A DNA stretch of 64,000 bases. It comes from Escherichia coli O157:H7. GTDB taxonomy: Bacteria; Pseudomonadota; Gammaproteobacteria; Enterobacterales; Enterobacteriaceae. Position numbers and translations under genes: made by a program. Location: the NCBI RefSeq assembly GCF_013167455.1, contig NZ_CP038328.1. One strand, 5' to 3'. Of the stretch, positions 1,742 through 64,000 are shown piece by piece; position 1 is the stretch's first letter; each line of letters opens with the position of its first letter. A model generated the notes under the pieces. That model did not search any database. It was not told where the DNA came from and saw only the letters and a list, made by a program, of their open reading frames with translations.

Positions 1742-3400
<1,659 letters not shown>

Positions 3401-3404
3401 TGAT

Positions 3405-3545
3405 GTGCCACATCCGGCATGGTATGCCGGATGTGGCGTATGCTGATAAGACGCGCCAGCGTCGCATCAGGCAACCGGCTCGGGCGTTAGATGTCGGATG
3501 CGGCGTGACCGCTTTATCCAACCTACGGGGTGCCGCACTTCACGG
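3405..3545. repeat. REP (repetitive extragenic palindrome) cluster between convergent mqo and eco
   Basis: Repeated GCCGGATGCGGCGT-like palindromic units (tgccggatgtggcgta, gtcggatgcggcgtg). Confidence 0.6.
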
Positions 3546-3549
3546 CAGT

Positions 3550-4038
3550 TTAGCGAACTACCGCGTTGTCAATTTTCTCTTCCGCCTTCCAGACGCGGTA
3601 CTTCACATCTACATTGTCTGGCGTATACACCACGATCGGCAGCTTGCTGTTGTAACGCAGCATTCCAGTATCGCCCAGATACGCGGTGACAAATTTCTTC
3701 TCTTTCTTGCCATCCGGGCAGGCCATCATCGTGGAAACCGGCGAGCTAACTTTATCAAAGACATAATAATCATAGCCCCAGCCTTCCAGCGTTTTGCTTT
3801 CCAGCTTCCCGCCGAGACGATGCAAATTGCAATCGACTTCCAGCGTCTGACCGATTAACAGTTCTACTTTCAGGGTAGATTCATCTTCTTGCGGGGTTAA
3901 CTGAATCACCTGACGCTTCATGCCTTTTTCAGCTTGTGGATAAGGCGCGATTTTTTCCAGTGGCTGGACGCTCTCTGCCGCCCAGGCGGAAGTGGTGGCG
4001 AAAGCGGCAAACAATACTGCAGGTAGAATGGTCTTCAT
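3550..4038 (-). CDS. eco: Ecotin, periplasmic serine protease inhibitor
   Basis: 162-aa ORF with signal peptide; sequence matches recalled ecotin. Confidence 0.9.
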
Positions 4039-54729: not shown

Positions 54730-56421
54730 ATGAAAACGCTGCTGATTATTGACGCTAATCTCGGTCAGGCACGCGCCTATATGGCGAAGACCCTGCTGGG
54801 CGCGGCGGCGCGAAAAGCAAAACTGGAAATCATCGACAATCCGAACGACGCAGAAATGGCGATTGTTCTCGGTGATTCCATCCCGAATGACAGCGCGCTG
54901 AACGGTAAAAATGTCTGGCTGGGCGATATTTCCCGGGCAGTTGCGCACCCTGAGCTGTTCCTGAGTGAAGCCAAAGGCCATGCGAAACCTTACACTGCGC
55001 CGGTCGCTGCGACAGCACCGGTTGCCGCCAGCGGTCCGAAACGCGTAGTTGCGGTGACTGCTTGCCCGACTGGCGTAGCACACACCTTTATGGCGGCTGA
55101 AGCCATTGAAACCGAAGCGAAAAAACGTGGCTGGTGGGTGAAAGTTGAAACCCGTGGTTCTGTTGGCGCGGGTAATGCAATCACTCCCGAAGAAGTAGCC
55201 GCAGCGGATCTGGTGATTGTGGCGGCAGATATCGAAGTGGATCTGGCGAAATTTGCTGGTAAACCGATGTATCGCACCTCTACCGGTCTGGCGCTGAAGA
55301 AAACCGCGCAGGAACTGGATAAAGCGGTTGCTGAAGCAACGCCGTATGAACCGGCGGGCAAAGCTCAAACGGCGACCTCTGAAGGTAAGAACGAGAGTGC
55401 AGGCGCATACCGTCACTTGCTGACGGGCGTCTCTTACATGCTGCCGATGGTCGTTGCAGGTGGTCTGTGTATCGCGCTTTCTTTTGCTTTTGGTATCGAA
55501 GCGTTTAAAGAGCCGGGTACGTTGGCAGCGGCGCTGATGCAGATTGGTGGTGGTTCAGCCTTTGCGCTGATGGTGCCGGTACTGGCAGGTTATATTGCCT
55601 TCTCCATTGCCGATCGTCCGGGTCTCACGCCGGGTCTGATTGGCGGTATGCTGGCGGTCAGCACCGGTTCTGGCTTCATTGGCGGTATTATTGCGGGCTT
55701 CCTGGCTGGTTACATTGCGAAGTTAATCAGTACGCAACTGAAACTGCCACAGAGTATGGAGGCGCTGAAACCGATCCTGATCATTCCGCTAATTTCCAGT
55801 CTGGTGGTCGGTCTGGCGATGATCTACCTGATCGGTAAACCGGTTGCTGGCATTCTCGAAGGGTTGACTCACTGGCTGCAGACCATGGGGACTGCGAATG
55901 CGGTTCTGCTGGGGGCGATCCTCGGTGGCATGATGTGTACTGACATGGGCGGTCCGGTAAATAAAGCAGCGTACGCATTCGGTGTGGGTCTGCTGAGTAC
56001 TCAAACCTATGGCCCGATGGCGGCGATTATGGCGGCAGGTATGGTGCCACCGCTGGCAATGGGTCTGGCAACAATGGTGGCGCGTCGCAAATTTGACAAA
56101 GCGCAGCAGGAAGGTGGCAAAGCCGCTCTGGTTCTTGGTCTGTGCTTTATTTCGGAAGGTGCAATTCCTTTTGCTGCTCGTGATCCGATGCGTGTGCTGC
56201 CGTGTTGTATCGTTGGTGGGGCGCTGACTGGCGCAATCTCAATGGCGATTGGTGCGAAACTGATGGCACCGCACGGTGGTCTGTTTGTTCTGCTGATCCC
56301 TGGCGCTATTACGCCGGTACTGGGTTACCTGGTAGCAATTATTGCCGGTACGCTGGTGGCGGGTTTGGCCTATGCCTTCCTGAAACGTCCGGAAGTGGAC
56401 GCAGTAGCGAAAGCCGCGTAA
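54730..56421 (+). CDS. fruA: PTS fructose-specific EIIB'BC component FruA
   Basis: 563-aa ORF. Confidence 0.9.
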   Translation: MKTLLIIDANLGQARAYMAKTLLGAAARKAKLEIIDNPNDAEMAIVLGDSIPNDSALNGKNVWLGDISRAVAHPELFLSEAKGHAKPYTAPVAATAPVAASGPKRVVAVTACPTGVAHTFMAAEAIETEAKKRGWWVKVETRGSVGAGNAITPEEVAAADLVIVAADIEVDLAKFAGKPMYRTSTGLALKKTAQELDKAVAEATPYEPAGKAQTATSEGKNESAGAYRHLLTGVSYMLPMVVAGGLCIALSFAFGIEAFKEPGTLAAALMQIGGGSAFALMVPVLAGYIAFSIADRPGLTPGLIGGMLAVSTGSGFIGGIIAGFLAGYIAKLISTQLKLPQSMEALKPILIIPLISSLVVGLAMIYLIGKPVAGILEGLTHWLQTMGTANAVLLGAILGGMMCTDMGGPVNKAAYAFGVGLLSTQTYGPMAAIMAAGMVPPLAMGLATMVARRKFDKAQQEGGKAALVLGLCFISEGAIPFAARDPMRVLPCCIVGGALTGAISMAIGAKLMAPHGGLFVLLIPGAITPVLGYLVAIIAGTLVAGLAYAFLKRPEVDAVAKAA

Positions 56422-56577
56422 TAAAAGGTGTGTTACAGGGCAGAAATTTACTGCCCCGTATCATTGGATGAGCGCAAAGAGAATGACCGGTTTGTGAATG
56501 TAATTTTATGAATTTAAATGGTTTTATCTTTCAGTAGAAACCTGAAACGTTCATCAAACACTAAGGTTATTTCCTCA

Positions 56578-56604
56578 AGGGCAGATTCTTTTCTGCCCTT
56601 TTTT
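56578..56604 (+). terminator. Intrinsic terminator of fruBKA
   Basis: aGGGCAGattcttttCTGCCCtttttt. Confidence 0.75.
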
Positions 56605-56744
56605 AGTGTTCATGTTCTGTGCATCCCGTCACAAATTCCTCGCTTTTGTAATTCAGGCATTTAATCGCATTTTGTGAGCCTGCTCAAATCTGCCCGCTTT
56701 GCCTCTCTGGCGGCAATTTACTTTACGTAAAACATGCATACTAT

Positions 56745-56778
56745 GAGCACATGTTTAAATATGAACACATGTTTAAAC
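56745..56778 (+). promoter_or_regulatory. Tandem 16-bp direct repeats (GAgCACATGTTTAAAt / GAaCACATGTTTAAAc) upstream of psuK
   Basis: Read from sequence; 2-bp gap between copies; each contains palindromic ACATGT. Confidence 0.5.
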
Positions 56779-56844
56779 CGTCTTTGCAGTATCTATATCC
56801 TTGTGGATTGACAGGGTTGGTAATTTTTTACCAGAGGACGTGCT

Positions 56845-57786
56845 ATGCGCGAAAAGGATTATGTCGTAATTATAGGCTCGGCGAATATTGATGTCGCCGG
56901 ATATTCACATGAATCATTAAATTATGCGGATTCAAATCCAGGTAAAATAAAATTTACGCCTGGTGGGGTAGGGCGCAATATTGCACAAAACCTGGCGTTG
57001 CTGGGTAATAAAGCCTGGCTACTGAGCGCCGTAGGCAGTGATTTTTATGGCCAATCGCTGCTAACGCAAACCAATCAATCTGGCGTTTATGTCGATAAAT
57101 GCCTGATTGTGCCGGGAGAAAATACGTCGAGCTATTTATCATTACTCGATAATACCGGTGAAATGCTGGTTGCTATAAATGACATGAATATTAGCAACGC
57201 TATTACAGCTGAATATCTCGCACAGCACCGTGAATTTATTCAGAGGGCAAAGGTCATTGTCGCGGACTGTAATATCAGTGAAGAGGCACTGGCATGGATT
57301 CTGGATAATGCTGCCAACGTACCCGTATTTGTCGATCCGGTTTCCGCGTGGAAATGCGTCAAAGTACGCGAGCGATTAAGTCAAATCCATACTCTCAAGC
57401 CAAACCGCCTTGAAGCGGAAACCCTGAGTGGGATTGCGCTGTCAGGGCGTGAAGATGTGGCAAAAGTTGCTGCCTGGTTCCATCAACATGGCCTGAACCG
57501 ACTGGTATTGAGCATGGGCGGCGACGGCGTTTATTACAGCGATATCAGCGGTGAAAGTGGCTGGTCTGCGCCGATCAAAACCAATGTTATTAATGTTACC
57601 GGAGCGGGCGATGCCATGATGGCGGGACTTGCTTCGTGTTGGGTAGACGGAATGCCGTTTGCCGAATCTGTTCGTTTCGCACAGGGATGTTCGTCAATGG
57701 CGCTCTCCTGTGAATACACCAATAACCCCGATTTATCGATTGCCAACGTTATATCGTTAGTGGAGAACGCAGAATGTCTGAATTAA
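56845..57786 (+). CDS. psuK: Pseudouridine kinase PsuK (YeiC)
   Basis: 313-aa PfkB-family kinase. Confidence 0.85.
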   Translation: MREKDYVVIIGSANIDVAGYSHESLNYADSNPGKIKFTPGGVGRNIAQNLALLGNKAWLLSAVGSDFYGQSLLTQTNQSGVYVDKCLIVPGENTSSYLSLLDNTGEMLVAINDMNISNAITAEYLAQHREFIQRAKVIVADCNISEEALAWILDNAANVPVFVDPVSAWKCVKVRERLSQIHTLKPNRLEAETLSGIALSGREDVAKVAAWFHQHGLNRLVLSMGGDGVYYSDISGESGWSAPIKTNVINVTGAGDAMMAGLASCWVDGMPFAESVRFAQGCSSMALSCEYTNNPDLSIANVISLVENAECLN

Positions 57787-58712
57787 AAATTTCCCCTGAA
57801 TTATTACAAATTTCCCCGGAAGTGCAGGACGCTTTAAAAAACAAAAAACCGGTTGTGGCGCTGGAATCGACCATTATTTCTCACGGGATGCCGTTCCCAC
57901 AAAATGCCCAGACCGCAATTGAAGTAGAAGAAACTATTCGTAAACAGGGCGCAGTACCTGCCACTATCGCCATTATTGGCGGCGTGATGAAAGTGGGTTT
58001 AAGCAAAGAAGAAATTGAATTACTGGGTCGTGAAGGGCATAACGTGACTAAAGTTAGTCGTCGCGATTTACCTTTTGTCGTTGCCGCAGGAAAAAATGGT
58101 GCAACCACCGTGGCTTCAACGATGATTATTGCGGCGCTTGCCGGAATTAAAGTATTTGCCACCGGCGGAATTGGTGGTGTTCATCGAGGGGCGGAACATA
58201 CCTTCGATATTTCTGCCGATTTGCAAGAACTGGCAAATACTAATGTCACCGTTGTTTGTGCCGGGGCGAAATCTATTCTCGATTTAGGATTAACCACTGA
58301 GTATTTAGAAACCTTCGGTGTGCCGTTAATTGGCTATCAGACTAAAGCGCTACCTGCGTTTTTCTGCCGTACCAGCCCGTTTGACGTCAGCATTCGTCTC
58401 GACAGCGCCAGTGAAATTGCCCGTGCAATGGCGGTGAAATGGCAAAGCGGGCTGAACGGTGGCCTCGTGGTAGCGAACCCGATCCCGGAACAGTTTGCGA
58501 TGCCAGAACACACTATCAATGCGGTGATCGATCAGGCGGTAGCTGAAGCTGAAGCGCAGGGTGTTATTGGTAAAGAAAGTACGCCATTCCTGCTGGCGCG
58601 CGTTGCTGAGCTGACCGGCGGTGACAGCCTGAAATCCAACATCCAGCTTGTGTTCAACAACGCCATTCTGGCGAGCGAAATTGCCAAAGAATATCAGCGT
58701 CTCGCGGGTTAA
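57774..58712 (+). CDS. psuG: Pseudouridine-5'-phosphate glycosidase PsuG (YeiN)
   Basis: 312-aa ORF overlapping psuK end. Confidence 0.85.
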   Translation: MSELKISPELLQISPEVQDALKNKKPVVALESTIISHGMPFPQNAQTAIEVEETIRKQGAVPATIAIIGGVMKVGLSKEEIELLGREGHNVTKVSRRDLPFVVAAGKNGATTVASTMIIAALAGIKVFATGGIGGVHRGAEHTFDISADLQELANTNVTVVCAGAKSILDLGLTTEYLETFGVPLIGYQTKALPAFFCRTSPFDVSIRLDSASEIARAMAVKWQSGLNGGLVVANPIPEQFAMPEHTINAVIDQAVAEAEAQGVIGKESTPFLLARVAELTGGDSLKSNIQLVFNNAILASEIAKEYQRLAG

Positions 58713-58805
58713 TTTCTGACGGGCAGAAAGCCGTCGCCCGTACTCATCAAACATACCGAAACCTGGCGCTGACGCCGGGTTTACTGGCATGAAGGGAAAA
58801 TCATT

Positions 58806-60056
58806 ATGGACATAATGAGAAGTGTTGTGGGGATGGTGGTGTTACTGGCAATAGCATTTCTGTTGTCAGTGAATAAAAAGAGCATCAGTTTGCGTACGGT
58901 TGCAGCCGCACTACTGCTGCAAATTGCTCTTGGTGGCATCATGCTCTATTTTCCGCCGGGAAAGTGGGCTGTAGAACAGGCGGCATTAGGCGTTCATAAA
59001 GTGATGTCTTACAGTGATGCTGGTAGCGCCTTCATTTTTGGTTCGCTGGTCGGGCCGAAAATGGATGTCCTCTTTGACGGTGCGGGTTTTATCTTCGCCT
59101 TTCGCGTACTTCCGGCGATTATCTTCGTCACTGCGCTCATTAGTCTGCTGTACTACATTGGCGTGATGGGGCTGCTGATTCGCATCCTTGGCAGCATTTT
59201 CCAGAAAGCCCTCAACATCAGCAAAATCGAATCTTTTGTCGCAGTCACCACTATTTTCCTCGGGCAAAATGAGATCCCGGCGATCGTTAAACCGTTTATC
59301 GATCGCATGAATCGAAACGAGTTGTTTACGGCTATTTGTAGCGGGATGGCGTCCATTGCTGGTTCGATGATGATTGGTTATGCCGGAATGGGCGTACCAA
59401 TTGACTACCTGTTGGCGGCATCGCTGATGGCGATCCCCGGCGGTATTTTGTTTGCACGTATTCTTAGTCCAGCAACCGAGCTTTCGCAGGTCACGTTTGA
59501 AAATCTGTCGTTCAGCGAAACGCCGCCAAAAAGCTTTATCGAAGCAGCGGCGAGCGGTGCGATGACCGGGCTGAAAATCGCCGCTGGTGTGGCGACGGTG
59601 GTAATGGCATTTGTGGCAATTATTGCGCTGATCAACGGCATTATCGGCGGAATTGGCGGCTGGTTTGGCTTCGCCAATGCTTCTCTGGAAAGTATTTTTG
59701 GCTATGTGCTGGCACCGCTGGCGTGGATCATGGGTGTGGACTGGAGTGATGCCAACCTTGCGGGTAGCCTGATTGGGCAGAAACTGGCGATTAACGAATT
59801 CGTCGCTTACCTGAGTTTCTCCCCATACCTGCAAACGGGCGGCACGCTGGAAGTGAAAACCATTGCGATTATCTCCTTTGCGCTTTGTGGTTTTGCTAAC
59901 TTTGGTTCTATCGGTGTTGTCGTTGGGGCATTTTCGGCTATTTCGCCAAAACGCGCACCGGAAATCGCTCAGCTTGGTTTACGGGCGCTGGCAGCAGCAA
60001 CGCTTTCCAACCTGATGAGCGCGACCATTGCCGGGTTCTTTATTGGTCTGGCGTAA
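58806..60056 (+). CDS. psuT: NupC-family nucleoside transporter PsuT (YeiM)
   Basis: 416-aa membrane protein, paralog of nupX. Confidence 0.85.
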   Translation: MDIMRSVVGMVVLLAIAFLLSVNKKSISLRTVAAALLLQIALGGIMLYFPPGKWAVEQAALGVHKVMSYSDAGSAFIFGSLVGPKMDVLFDGAGFIFAFRVLPAIIFVTALISLLYYIGVMGLLIRILGSIFQKALNISKIESFVAVTTIFLGQNEIPAIVKPFIDRMNRNELFTAICSGMASIAGSMMIGYAGMGVPIDYLLAASLMAIPGGILFARILSPATELSQVTFENLSFSETPPKSFIEAAASGAMTGLKIAAGVATVVMAFVAIIALINGIIGGIGGWFGFANASLESIFGYVLAPLAWIMGVDWSDANLAGSLIGQKLAINEFVAYLSFSPYLQTGGTLEVKTIAIISFALCGFANFGSIGVVVGAFSAISPKRAPEIAQLGLRALAAATLSNLMSATIAGFFIGLA

Positions 60057-60065
60057 TGCTCAATT

Positions 60066-60112
60066 TGTAGACCGGATAAAACGCATCAAGCGTTGCATCC
60101 GGCAATCGCGCT
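60066..60112. repeat. REP-like palindromic element
   Basis: gaccggataaaacgcatcaagcgttgcatccggca. Confidence 0.5.
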
Positions 60113-60126
60113 ATTGCAAATAATTT

Positions 60127-60786
60127 TTACTGCATCATCCCGGAGAATTTATTCTCCGGGTCCATCTCCAGTGCCAGCCCTGACAACTGCTTTCTGTTTT
60201 TAATTAGATATCCTTTCTTGCTTTTAATTAATAAACCGTCGTGAATGAATTGCGCGAGAACATATAAAAGATGTCGATAAGAAACGCCTAAATACTCTGC
60301 CGCTTGCGTATGCTTTTCGTGATAAAGATCACCTTCTTGTGAGAGTAATATAAATGCTGCCAGGCGATTCACTAACGGAAATGATTGATTCTGAGTTAAA
60401 GAAACAATATTACGATAATTTTTATGACTTAAGGTGACGCAAAGTTTTCGTAAAAATAGGGTGTCGTTTAATAACAGCGGACGGTAATGTTTCATAGGGA
60501 GCGCAAGGCACCAACACTCTTCAATAGCCTGTACCGCACGCGGTTCATGGTCTTTATCGATTAACTCAATCTCACCAATAAAACAGGGGGCGGCAAAGAA
60601 ATCGATCAGCGACACGCGACCATTAGCTAGCGTGGCGTAAAGCCTGGCGCGGCCTCGCGTCAGGTAAAACAGCCAGGACGGCTGTTGCCCTTCCTGCACA
60701 ATGTAGTCACGCGCTAAAAAATGAAACAGCCGCGTATCGGCTGAAACATCCGTTAAAAAGCAATCCTTAAACGCGGATTCACTCAT
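60127..60786 (-). CDS. yeiL: Crp/Fnr-family transcriptional regulator YeiL
   Basis: ~219 aa from [10 protein letters not shown]; cNMP-binding-like domain plus C-terminal HTH. Confidence 0.8.
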
Positions 60787-60954
60787 CAATTGCTGCTTAA
60801 GATCATTATTGTGGATTTCTTTCACGATGTTTATCCGCTATGAGATTTCTCATATTTAGCATACGTACGCTGTTGTTAAGATTCAATCATCGGCCCGATC
60901 GAAATTTCTTTGCTGTAGAAAAAATAACGCAACTGGAAACAGAGGAAATAAACA

Positions 60955-61896
60955 ATGGAAAAGAGAAAAATTATTCTGGATTGTGATCCGGGTCATGATG
61001 ATGCTATTGCTATAATGATGGCGGCGAAACATCCGGCAATAGATTTATTAGGCATCACTATTGTAGCGGGTAATCAGACGCTTGATAAAACATTAATTAA
61101 TGGCCTGAATGTTTGCCAGAAACTGGAGATTAATGTTCCGGTTTATGCGGGGATGCCACAACCCATTATGCGGCAACAAATCGTTGCCGATAATATTCAC
61201 GGTGATACCGGACTGGATGGCCCGGTATTCGAGCCGCTGACCCGCCAGGCAGAAAGCACTCATGCGGTGAAATACATCATTGATACCCTGATGGCAAGCG
61301 ATGGCGATATCACTCTGGTGCCGGTTGGTCCGCTTTCAAATATCGCGGTGGCAATGCGTATGCAACCCGCGATCCTGCCCAAAATCCGTGAAATTGTGCT
61401 AATGGGCGGCGCTTACGGTACAGGCAACTTCACGCCATCTGCCGAGTTCAACATCTTTGCTGACCCGGAAGCCGCACGCGTGGTGTTCACCTCTGGCGTT
61501 CCATTAGTGATGATGGGCCTCGATCTCACCAACCAGACCGTTTGCACCCCGGACGTGATTGCACGAATGGAAAGGGCAGGCGGCCCTGCCGGAGAGCTGT
61601 TCAGCGACATCATGAACTTCACTCTCAAAACCCAGTTCGAAAACTACGGCCTGGCTGGCGGCCCGGTGCACGACGCCACCTGCATCGGTTATCTGATTAA
61701 CCCTGATGGCATTAAAACCCAGGAGATGTACGTCGAAGTGGACGTCAACAGTGGCCCTTGTTATGGGCGTACCGTCTGCGACGAGCTGGGCGTTCTTGGC
61801 AAGCCCGCTAATACCAAAGTCGGCATCACTATTGATAGCGACTGGTTCTGGGGCTTAGTCGAAGAGTGCGTGCGCGGCTACATCAAAACCCATTAA
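60955..61896 (+). CDS. rihB: Pyrimidine-specific ribonucleoside hydrolase RihB (YeiK)
   Basis: 313-aa ORF; N-terminal DCDPGHDD motif. Confidence 0.9.
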
Positions 61897-61995
61897 GTGT
61901 TGATAACAAGCCGGGCCGGTATCGCAAGATGCAGGCCTGGCTATTTCTGATGGGCAGAAAGCCGTCGCCCAATATGACATGAAGAGATAATCACT

Positions 61996-63246
61996 ATGGA
62001 TGTCATGAGAAGTGTTCTGGGAATGGTGGTATTGCTGACGATTGCGTTTTTACTGTCAGTAAACAAGAAGAAGATCAGCCTGCGTACCGTTGGCGCGGCG
62101 TTAGTGTTACAGGTCGTGATTGGCGGCATTATGCTTTGGTTACCGCCAGGGCGTTGGGTCGCTGAAAAAGTCGCTTTTGGTGTGCATAAAGTGATGGCGT
62201 ACAGCGACGCGGGTAGCGCATTTATCTTCGGTTCTCTGGTCGGACCGAAAATGGACACCTTATTTGATGGCGCAGGATTTATCTTTGGTTTCAGGGTATT
62301 ACCGGCAATTATCTTCGTCACTGCACTGGTGAGTATTCTCTACTACATCGGTGTGATGGGGATTTTAATTCGCATTCTCGGCGGTATATTCCAGAAAGCA
62401 TTAAATATCAGCAAGATTGAGTCATTCGTCGCGGTCACTACCATTTTCCTCGGGCAAAACGAAATTCCGGCGATTGTGAAGCCCTTTATCGATCGGCTGA
62501 ATCGCAATGAATTATTTACAGCGATTTGTAGCGGCATGGCCTCGATTGCTGGTTCGACAATGATTGGTTATGCCGCACTGGGCGTGCCTGTGGAATATTT
62601 GCTGGCGGCATCGTTAATGGCGATCCCCGGGGGGATCTTGTTTGCCCGCCTGCTAAGCCCGGCTACGGAATCTTCGCAGGTTTCTTTTAATAACCTCTCT
62701 TTCACCGAAACACCGCCAAAAAGCATTATTGAAGCCGCCGCGACAGGGGCAATGACCGGGCTGAAAATCGCCGCAGGTGTGGCGACAGTAGTGATGGCAT
62801 TCGTCGCCATCATTGCGTTAATTAACGGTATTATCGGCGGCGTTGGCGGCTGGTTTGGTTTTGAACATGCCTCGCTGGAGTCCATTGTAGGTTATCTGCT
62901 GGCCCCACTGGCGTGGGTAATGGGTGTTGACTGGAGTGATGCGAATCTTGCCGGGAGTTTGATTGGACAGAAACTGGCAATAAATGAATTTGTCGCTTAT
63001 CTCAATTTCTCACCCTATCTGCAAACGGCTGGCACTCTGGATGCTAAAACCGTGGCGATTATTTCCTTCGCGTTGTGCGGTTTCGCTAACTTTGGTTCTA
63101 TCGGGGTGGTGGTGGGGGCGTTTTCTGCGGTTGCGCCACACCGTGCGCCGGAAATCGCCCAGCTTGGTTTACGCGCGCTGGCGGCGGCGACACTTTCTAA
63201 CCTGATGAGTGCCACCATTGCCGGGTTCTTTATTGGTTTAGCGTAG
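61996..63246 (+). CDS. nupX: NupC-family nucleoside permease NupX (YeiJ)
   Basis: 416-aa ORF, highly similar to psuT. Confidence 0.85.
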   Translation: MDVMRSVLGMVVLLTIAFLLSVNKKKISLRTVGAALVLQVVIGGIMLWLPPGRWVAEKVAFGVHKVMAYSDAGSAFIFGSLVGPKMDTLFDGAGFIFGFRVLPAIIFVTALVSILYYIGVMGILIRILGGIFQKALNISKIESFVAVTTIFLGQNEIPAIVKPFIDRLNRNELFTAICSGMASIAGSTMIGYAALGVPVEYLLAASLMAIPGGILFARLLSPATESSQVSFNNLSFTETPPKSIIEAAATGAMTGLKIAAGVATVVMAFVAIIALINGIIGGVGGWFGFEHASLESIVGYLLAPLAWVMGVDWSDANLAGSLIGQKLAINEFVAYLNFSPYLQTAGTLDAKTVAIISFALCGFANFGSIGVVVGAFSAVAPHRAPEIAQLGLRALAAATLSNLMSATIAGFFIGLA

Positions 63247-63254
63247 TGTGCGAT

Positions 63255-63300
63255 TTATGAGCCGGATAAGATGCGGTCAAGCGTCGAATCCGGCAACATT
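63255..63300. repeat. REP-like palindromic element
   Basis: gagccggataagatgcggtcaagcgtcgaatccggca. Confidence 0.45.
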
Positions 63301-63301
63301 G

Positions 63302-64000
63302 TTACACCATTGGCACTAATGAAAGCGCGTTATCGGCAGACAGGGTAGGGTTGTTTAAGCTGCCGCTGGCGCGTGAAATTGCCGCGCAGGCCATCGCAAA
63401 ACGGGCGCTGTCACGGAAATTGTTTCCTTCCAGAAAGCTATATACCAGGCCCGCCATAAAACCATCGTCAGCACCAAAACTGTCTACTGTCGTATGCGCT
63501 GGTGCGGTCAGCAAAAATTGTTCTCCATCCTTTTCGCTGCAATAAACTGACTCATCGGGCAAATAAACAAACAGTTGCTGAACACCTTGCTGATGCAACG
63601 CATTCACTGCAGCATTACGGTCAGCATCGCTGGTGATCGCCTGTCCCCATAAAATTTCCAGCTCCGGTAAAGTGGGTTTCAGGGTGTGAATATGCGCCAG
63701 CCAGTGTTTGATTTTGCCCGCTTTGAATTCTGAAACGGTATCGACAAACACCGGGATCTCACCAGCGAGGGTAAAGACCCATTCCAGCGCCTCGGCTGTC
63801 AGGTTGCAATCAGCCAGTACCACGCCCGCATGACGAAGTAAATCGCGCGACCCGTTCAATAATTGCGGCGATAACTGTTCCAGCAGATGGGTATCGTTAA
63901 TCGCCAGCACGGTTTCATCGTCTCGATTGGCAATTGCCAGATACGTCGATGTGCTTTGACCATGTAAACGAACGCAGCCGGAGACATTCACGCCGGCGCG
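63302..64000 (-). CDS. yeiI: PfkB-family sugar kinase YeiI, 3' portion (5' end beyond window)
   Basis: Open frame continues to window end; paralog of psuK. Confidence 0.8.
   Translation of the reverse strand, partial: RAGVNVSGCVRLHGQSTSTYLAIANRDDETVLAINDTHLLEQLSPQLLNGSRDLLRHAGVVLADCNLTAEALEWVFTLAGEIPVFVDTVSEFKAGKIKHWLAHIHTLKPTLPELEILWGQAITSDADRNAAVNALHQQGVQQLFVYLPDESVYCSEKDGEQFLLTAPAHTTVDSFGADDGFMAGLVYSFLEGNNFRDSARFAMACAAISRASGSLNNPTLSADNALSLVPMV

Follow-up and report, generated by a model that had tools for sequence, protein, structure and literature searches.

What is the short sequence that precedes two related transporter genes of Escherichia coli, each in a different catabolic operon, and at what level would it act? 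The genes, psuT and nupX, belong to one clade within the NupC family (CNT) of transporters. Next to nothing is known of their expression, and their substrates are still debated; NupX transports uridine and cytidine weakly, and none of the nucleosides tested is transported by PsuT (PMC11241209). Both lie within the stretch of DNA analysed here (64 kb in full; hereafter the window), of which a 121-nt piece matched an O157:H7 chromosome at 100% identity. The genes are arranged as follows:

upstream of psuK, plus strand: fruK and fruA
56845-57786, plus strand: psuK
57774-58712, plus strand: psuG (stop codon TAA at 58710-58712)
58806-60056, plus strand: psuT
60127-60825, minus strand: yeiL
60955-61896, plus strand: rihB
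61996-63246, plus strand: nupX

Two copies of the 28-mer ATTTCTGAYGGGCAGAAAGCCGTCGCCC, and no more, are present in the window: one at 58712-58739 (Y=C) and one at 61943-61970 (Y=T), both on the plus strand. The initial annotation had noticed this segment before psuT and nupX; the repeat is real, and its coordinates needed correction by 2 nt at psuT and 1 nt at nupX. No third match with up to 3 mismatches is present in the window, and none of 100 dinucleotide-shuffled windows contained two matches when 3 mismatches were allowed. Copies detectable by BLAST with a 40-nt query number two (median) per E. coli genome. The two copies are identical at 27 of 28 positions, while the psuT and nupX coding sequences are 78% identical overall and 51% identical at third codon positions. 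Since only 8 of 1224 28-nt windows in the coding sequences reach 27/28, the two copies of the element are far more alike than neutral change would leave them. The leaders become homologous precisely where the element starts and are so again at the ribosome-binding site; 41 nt of the psuT leader are missing from that of nupX. Neither intergenic gap carries any annotation in the K-12 RefSeq record. The parts of the two leaders, with the common hairpin designated HP1 and a second hairpin HP2, are:

58712-58718 (twin at 61943-61949), plus strand: 5' flank ATTTCTG, common to the Escherichia paralogues only in a 50-leader alignment and outside the conserved element
58719-58741, plus strand: HP1, psuT copy (ACGGGC 58719-58724, loop AGAAAGCCGTC 58725-58735, GCCCGT 58736-58741; 6 bp)
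58742-58758, plus strand: C/A-rich linker ACTCATCAAACATACCG (consensus ATATCAGACATACCAAAA in other genera)
58759-58782, plus strand: HP2, terminator-like (AAA and CCTGGCG 58762-58768, loop CTGA, CGCCGGG 58773-58779 and TTT)
58792-58808, plus strand: psuT ribosome-binding region (AAGGG 58792-58796, 9-nt spacer, ATG 58806; GAAGGGAAAATCATTATG conserved in the alignment)
61909-61942, plus strand: strong hairpin 3' of the rihB stop, abutting the ATTTCTGA flank of the nupX HP1
61951-61971, plus strand: HP1, nupX copy (TGGGC 61951-61955, loop 61956-61966, GCCCA 61967-61971; 5 bp)
61982-61998, plus strand: nupX ribosome-binding region (AAGAGA, spacer, ATG 61996)

The psuT copy of HP1 begins 7 nt past the psuG stop codon and the nupX copy ends 25 nt before the nupX ATG. 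Scored against a covariance model built from 40 hairpins, they reach 36.4 and 33.9 bits, respectively. As first described, the 11-nt loop is the same in both, and the stems differ by an exchange of C-G for T-A that keeps the pairing; the description of the second stem as "GCCCAT-like" was likewise accurate, for its outermost position is an A·A mismatch with A61950 and A61972 unpaired. The absence of a U-tract after the element is equally correct. The hairpin at 61909-61942 may be a rihB 3' hairpin or a partial terminator; unrelated hairpins occupy the post-rihB position in other genera, the one in Pluralibacter (L036, ~2905-2935) being a canonical terminator with T6. These hairpins raise the question of the route by which nupX is transcribed. 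At the other end of each transporter gene, REP-like palindromes lie directly 3' of psuT (60070-60134) and nupX (63260-63305), with weak matches to naRNA4 (31 and 20 bits), so that the duplicated unit appears bounded by HP1 on one side and by REP on the other.

A survey taking one genome per species yielded 59 loci, 48 of them from Enterobacterales. The genera represented are Escherichia, Citrobacter, Klebsiella, Enterobacter, Kosakonia, Phytobacter, Pseudocitrobacter, Buttiauxella, Kluyvera, Superficieibacter, Entomohabitans, Salmonella (arizonae), Pluralibacter, Izhakiella, Pantoea, Ewingella and Hafnia, together with a metagenome-assembled genome labelled Raoultella. The core hairpin was found in all 48 Enterobacterales loci (approximately 18 genera), always on the coding strand and in the gap before the transporter gene, which follows psuG in 33 loci and rihB in 15; the location after psuG or rihB noted in E. 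coli holds in every one of them. Read across these loci, the arrangement shows HP1 to be part of the predicted transcript of the upstream enzyme gene (psuG or rihB) and to move with the transporter gene independently of which enzyme gene stands upstream. When more distant homologues were sought at the protein level, every relative recovered was at least 87% identical, and no new leaders were gained. The yeiL-rihB-nupX segment forms an invariant module, yeiL (a CRP/FNR-family regulator gene) being divergently paired in every rihB-linked locus (L021, L025-L038, L051). Downstream of psuK-psuG-psuT there is usually a yeiI-like kinase gene in the opposite orientation. At one locus (L046; Citrobacter koseri NCTC10786, ~2080-3980) psuG and psuT align in fragments, indicating frameshifts or assembly errors; the hairpin before psuT is intact despite the fragmented genes (36 bits).

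The conserved core, YGGGC-AG-NNN-GC-N-GUC-GCCCR, spans 21 nt. Mean pairwise identity is 0.81-1.0 at 15 of 19 core positions, 0.31-0.48 at the four N positions of the loop and 0.27-0.49 in the flanks; at third codon positions of the adjacent gene it averages 0.53, and only 6% of these positions reach 0.9. The contrast of the core with its flanks and with third codon positions shows that the stem and most loop bases have evidently been under strong purifying selection in otherwise neutral surroundings. Thus the core of the repeat first noticed is conserved, and the 28-mer is too long as a description of it: outside Escherichia its opening 8 nt (ATTTCTGA) are free to vary, and so are AAA and C in the loop, which fill the NNN and N of the core. 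At the remaining loop bases, A, G, G, C, G, U and C, pairwise identity is still 0.81-1.0 over a span that reaches from Escherichia to Pantoea and Ewingella. A hairpin with another loop sequence is found in Hafnia, Izhakiella and Pluralibacter, that of Hafnia having a perfect 13-bp stem; the loop motif is therefore not indispensable. Between HP1 and the start codon lie 25 to ~65 nt, and on the 5' side of HP1 most genera have an A/U-rich flank (TAATTTCTGA, GATAAAAAACC, TAAAAACTC). The linker is mostly deleted in five Citrobacter-lineage loci of the leader alignment (L023, L024, L044, L046, L048). HP1 is never lost.

Does the core pair as RNA? RNAalifold, run without guidance on a 184-column leader alignment, predicted the HP1 stem and an inner G-C pair above a bulged A. 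HP1 as so defined consists of a 5-bp G+C stem (YGGGC/GCCCR), the bulged A, the G-C pair and an 8-nt loop, NNNGCNGU. Over the hairpin, 89.6-91.7% of alignment cells hold standard pairs, versus 33-51% when the partners are shifted by 1-3 columns, and none of 500 shuffles reached the observed pairing, number of double changes or covariation score. The pair adjoining GGGC/GCCC, singled out at the outset from the two E. coli copies, is indeed the one that covaries across Enterobacterales: C-G in 34 leaders (24 in alignment A4, as pair 7/27), U-A in 9, U·G in 3 and broken in 4, namely three Enterobacter with C·A and L021 with U·U. When the coding sequences are placed in a tree by neighbour joining, the U-A state turns up in at least three separate places, and a Buttiauxella psuT with U·G stands next to two U-A lineages (L030, L031), in agreement with C-G to U·G to U-A as the path to be expected. 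The three G-C pairs and the C-G pair of the GGGC stem are nearly invariant, with double changes to U-A in Enterobacter sichuanensis (L019) and to A-U in Hafnia (L033). The inner pair is G-C in 42 leaders, G·U in 6 and A-U in 1, never A·C. The outer (sixth) pair is present in about half of the lineages (A-U 13, G-C 11, G·U 1, unpaired 25). Of the 7 pairs, 5 show one or more double changes, most events falling in one pair; covariation support amounts to one or two pairs and a handful of independent events. HP1 would on this evidence qualify as a structured cis-regulatory RNA in the general sense, with pairs kept by compensatory change across species. The pair adjoining GGGC shows no preference between strands, U·G and C·A being found three times each; the assignment to the plus strand follows from the inner G·U pairs and from the neighbouring HP2.

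The thermodynamic stability of HP1 in single sequences is unremarkable (z = -0.7 to -1.3). The minimum free energy fold of the E. coli psuT leader has GACGG/CCGUC, together with pairing to the end of psuG, in place of HP1, a species-specific structure; a short nupX fragment prefers UUCUG/CAGAA. For the 106-nt nupX leader that includes the hairpin at 61909-61942 (z = -3.8), the minimum free energy fold contains exactly HP1, with A61956 bulged and the pairs G61957-C61966 and A61958-U61965. Because the z-scores are modest and the folds found only in E. coli are unconserved, the case for the structure is comparative rather than thermodynamic. Three other pairings were considered and rejected. A TTTCTG/CAGAAA helix, forming a pseudoknot with the HP1 stem, is paired in 42.6% of cells, no better than shifted controls, and is species-specific. 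So is GACGG.C/GCCGTC, with 70.8% of cells paired versus 73% in a shifted control and its key pair broken in 27 of 40 sequences. A pseudoknot of the loop with the tail or with the start codon (GUC/GAC) has only 3 bp and is absent from E. coli psuT.

Part of the near-identity of the two Escherichia copies requires a separate explanation. At Escherichia-type loci the paralogous hairpins match at 26-28 of 32 positions of the element; in Citrobacter amalonaticus and Phytobacter they differ at the free positions, with 24/32 and 15/32 identical. The gene tree does not cleanly separate psuG-linked from rihB-linked copies: the rihB-linked transporter genes of Buttiauxella and Salmonella arizonae (L030, L031) cluster with the psuG-linked ones of Buttiauxella (L018, L041) and not with other nupX genes, a placement that suggests concerted evolution between paralogues. 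The idea that the stem-loop was simply retained after duplication fits the core, present in every Enterobacterales locus, and is too simple for the rest, since the duplication is older than the split of the genera and paralogues elsewhere have diverged at the free positions. What the Escherichia copies share beyond the core (ATTTCTGA, AAA and C) is better explained by exchange between paralogues or by parallel change than by mere retention.

HP2 lies 20 nt downstream of HP1. Its extended imperfect stem (58752-58791), in the minimum free energy fold, pairs the 3' part of the linker with 58785-58791 and ends 1 nt before the Shine-Dalgarno sequence AAGGG. The pair cells of HP2 are 93.4% paired, and one position is U·G in 29 leaders, C-G in 5 and U-A in 1; on the opposite strand this U·G would be a C·A mismatch, which argues that the leader is constrained as plus-strand RNA. 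The U-tract has only 3-4 U and the hairpin was not called by a terminator scan. RNAalifold applied to psuT-type leaders alone gave no clean HP2 consensus, the Klebsiella group being shifted in the alignment. HP2 is kept in all psuG-linked leaders and is missing from many nupX leaders, including that of E. coli. A single rihB-linked leader has it, that of Klebsiella spallanzanii (L026), in which HP1, linker and HP2 are all kept; it follows that the whole leader probably belonged to the transporter gene before the duplication and that several nupX lineages later lost the linker and HP2. The initial annotation had offered an attenuator as one role for HP1, a reading that fails for HP1 by itself: the terminator-like hairpin, which had escaped notice, is the one 20 nt downstream, and of the two E. 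coli leaders only that of psuT has it. Pairing of HP1 with HP2 as an antiterminator was rejected as well, for it is limited to CGCC/GGCG (4 bp), with no mutually exclusive pairing. A small upstream reading frame, ATGAAGGGAAAATCATTATGGACATAA (58789-58815, ATG 58789, MKGKSLWT and stop), is out of frame with psuT and overlaps its start. Its ATG is found in many genera, the frame having only 3 codons in nupX; as a candidate it was discarded because the ATG is missing in Klebsiella, Pantoea and other leaders.

Searches for known families, further copies and partners were largely negative. No Rfam 15 family scored at its gathering threshold over HP1 when 56000-64000 was scanned with cmscan (E <= 10); the only overlap was isrJ at 58709-58783 (19.3 bits, threshold 37, E = 6), with no match at the nupX copy. 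HP1 does not have the form of an intrinsic terminator: it is followed by GTACTCAT in psuT and AATATGAC in nupX, its 3' flank is not U-rich across genera, and the terminator scan did not call it. Nor does it belong to the REP/BIME elements: its copies number two (median) per E. coli genome, and naRNA4/REP matches lie downstream of the genes. Riboswitch architecture was not recognised, only the 21-nt hairpin being conserved, with the tail deleted in several lineages and HP2 often absent. The geometry is likewise not that of a BglG/SacY-type RAT, with HP1 ending at 58741 and the HP2 stem starting at 58759-58762. Within 3 kb on either side no antiterminator gene was found in the 48 loci, and the loci hold no RNA-binding protein gene nearby and no conserved complementary segment. 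The covariance model found only the two window copies in the window and, in 404 kb of other loci (468 kb altogether), only the leader of the second paralogue. Within 414 kb of K-12, including nupC, nupG, xapAB, deoCABD, udp, cdd, rihA, rihC, yegT and carAB, it again found only the two known copies, the next best match (19 bits) lying inside the rsfS coding sequence. A metagenome scan for GGGCAGNNNGCNGTCGCCC gave at least 120 matches; among the matches listed, 117 were chance occurrences in G+C-rich, apparently coding DNA and 3 were Escherichia psuT/nupX. The stem of the intrinsic terminator 3' of fruA (56577-56600; AAGGGCAGA...TCTGCCCTT and then TTTTT) contains GGGCAG by coincidence and gives no covariance-model match. 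A resemblance to the RfaH ops site (GCGGTNGC) depends on a freely varying position and was set aside, and a minus-strand terminator, made of the hairpin and a T-run from the A-rich 5' flank, fits several genera and not Escherichia and was rejected as a conserved function. Published 3'-end maps (Term-seq supplements) have no entry in either gap, the operons having presumably been almost silent in the conditions chosen; a single transcript end listed as antisense to nupX (NC_000913.3, 2253044, plus strand) falls within the coding region and not in the leader (PMC7815308, supplementary table). No description of the element or of regulation through the psuT or nupX leader was found in the literature searched. 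The element is thus absent from Rfam 15 and from that literature; its kind, a conserved cis-regulatory leader hairpin, is one already known. This absence, along with conservation in ~18 genera, makes it probably a small, undescribed control element in mRNA.

What, then, would HP1 do? Our preferred reading, to which we give a probability of roughly 0.4 and which is put forward tentatively, is that HP1 is a cis-acting RNA recognition hairpin in the leaders of the psuT/nupX clade, setting the yield of transporter from the operon transcript. From the nearly invariant loop bases we infer that HP1 acts as RNA and is recognised sequence-specifically. The stem-loop originally proposed stands as regards the stem; it is incomplete in that these loop bases point to such recognition. 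The partner would most likely be a general protein of the RNA machinery or a dedicated RNA-binding factor and, less likely, a small ligand; it would set how much of the operon transcript yields transporter. The partner might act through termination, processing or stability at HP2, next to the Shine-Dalgarno sequence, in psuT-type leaders; in those of nupX type from which HP2 has been lost, it would work directly, by altering how the mRNA is processed, how stable it is or how it is translated.

Possible, if somewhat doubtful, is an mRNA element that works by structure alone, a processing or stability hairpin that sets the enzyme:transporter ratio without any dedicated partner. RNase E might cut in the A/U-rich 5' flank and leave HP1 as a 5'-terminal stem-loop protecting the transporter cistron; alternatively, HP1 might shield the upstream enzyme cistron from 3' exonucleases. 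The intercistronic position, the A/U-richness of the flank in most genera and the variable distance to the start codon all agree with this, as do the three genera that keep the hairpin and replace its loop, and the absence of a second target from the DNA searched. A hairpin selected for its shape should, however, let its loop drift, and here the loop bases stand at 0.81-1.0 identity; moreover, the GGGC/GCCC stem is almost invariant instead of freely covarying.

The same invariance of the GGGC/GCCC arms and interior bases would be expected from base-specific contacts in DNA, that is, from an operator (CGGGC-N11-GCCCG as duplex) at which a transcription factor would block or tune the transcription that enters the transporter gene. 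The covarying pair, in which U·G and C·A are equally frequent, leaves the strand unfixed, and the regulator gene yeiL is an invariant neighbour of rihB-nupX. We nevertheless regard an operator as unlikely. Its 5-bp arms would lie 11 bp apart (16 bp centre to centre) around an asymmetric interior, a poor fit to the site geometry of CRP/FNR, LysR, LacI or GntR regulators. Symmetric exchanges of C-G for T-A by way of wobble intermediates are predicted by RNA pairing and not by a fixed half-site, and at the inner G-C the only substitutes are G·U and A-U, A·C being absent. The site would also be internal to an operon, at no fixed distance from the start codon and with no recognisable promoter, and genomes that have only psuT carry HP1 without an adjoining yeiL.

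Improbable in our estimation is a minimal hairpin riboswitch in which HP1 and the A-rich tail bind a nucleoside (pseudouridine, uridine) or a related metabolite and HP2 serves as expression platform. Its attractions are a size and layout like those of preQ1-I, which in psuT include a terminator-like hairpin beside the Shine-Dalgarno sequence, an association with nucleoside transporter genes only, and the conserved loop bases. Against this, intact HP1 hairpins are found without most of the tail in E. coli nupX and in several Citrobacter-lineage leaders, loop and tail share no conserved complementarity beyond the 3-bp GUC/GAC, HP1 and HP2 have no mutually exclusive pairing beyond the 4-bp CGCC/GGCG, and no Rfam riboswitch model scores even at E <= 10. 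We know of no validated aptamer with as few as 21 conserved nucleotides. A bolder and rather unlikely reading would make HP1 the sensor of a hitherto unrecognised, very small class of regulatory RNA dedicated to CNT-type nucleoside transporters in Enterobacterales, either a minimal nucleoside (e.g., pseudouridine or uridine) aptamer or the site of an RNA-binding regulator, which ancestrally controlled read-through at HP2.

Finally, that the element has no function of its own and that its identity in E. coli is a by-product of recent gene conversion is hard to credit: the features that only the paralogues of Escherichia have in common (ATTTCTGA, and AAA and C at the free loop positions) and the mixing of psuG-linked and rihB-linked copies in the gene tree do suggest exchange, yet conversion would account for at most the extra 8-12 identical positions in Escherichia and leaves unexplained a core kept in ~18 genera and in both contexts while neighbouring positions are neutral.

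The pseudouridine (psuKG) and pyrimidine ribonucleoside (rihB) operons both carry HP1 before the transporter cistron. Its presence in two different catabolic operons suggests that one post-transcriptional device, common to both, controls the dose of transporter whatever the promoter control of each operon. If the loop is a recognition site, it offers a handle on the partner, and HP1 would be a cis-regulatory RNA not yet catalogued in E. coli, a species in which few are left to describe; if HP1 is only a stability hairpin, it is an ordinary one.

Among known systems, the protein-binding leader hairpins come closest. Like boxB in the lambda nut sites, the BglG-type RAT and the PyrR loop, HP1 has a G+C stem of about 5 bp and conserved loop bases; its place is an untranslated leader, with a terminator-like hairpin further downstream in the psuT lineage, and it is apparently recognised sequence-specifically. 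To our knowledge it has no sequence similarity to the boxB (GCCCUGAAAAAGGGC), RAT or PyrR loop consensus sequences. It differs from lambda boxB/nut in having no boxA-like partner element, and from BglG-type RAT in that it does not overlap a terminator arm, no antiterminator gene is nearby and HP2 is missing from many nupX leaders. Stabiliser and processing hairpins, such as the ompA 5' stem-loop and intercistronic REP/BIME elements, resemble HP1 in their intercistronic place between enzyme and membrane-protein genes, their A/U-rich flank and their variable distance to the ribosome-binding site. They have no need of conserved loop bases, however, and REP is multi-copy with a consensus of its own, whereas HP1 is present twice per genome and has no REP/naRNA4 match. 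Like the small hairpin-type riboswitches (preQ1-I), HP1 has a 5-bp stem, an 11-nt loop and an A-rich 3' tail in ~40 nt and is linked to a transporter of a related class of metabolite; it differs in that its tail is dispensable and that it has no conserved pseudoknot and no Rfam hit. With intrinsic terminators and attenuators the likeness lies in HP2, which has the A-tract, G+C stem and U-tract layout of a bidirectional terminator and stands in a leader; the differences are the lack of a U-tract after HP1, the run of only 3-4 U after HP2, and the lack of antiterminator pairing between the two hairpins.
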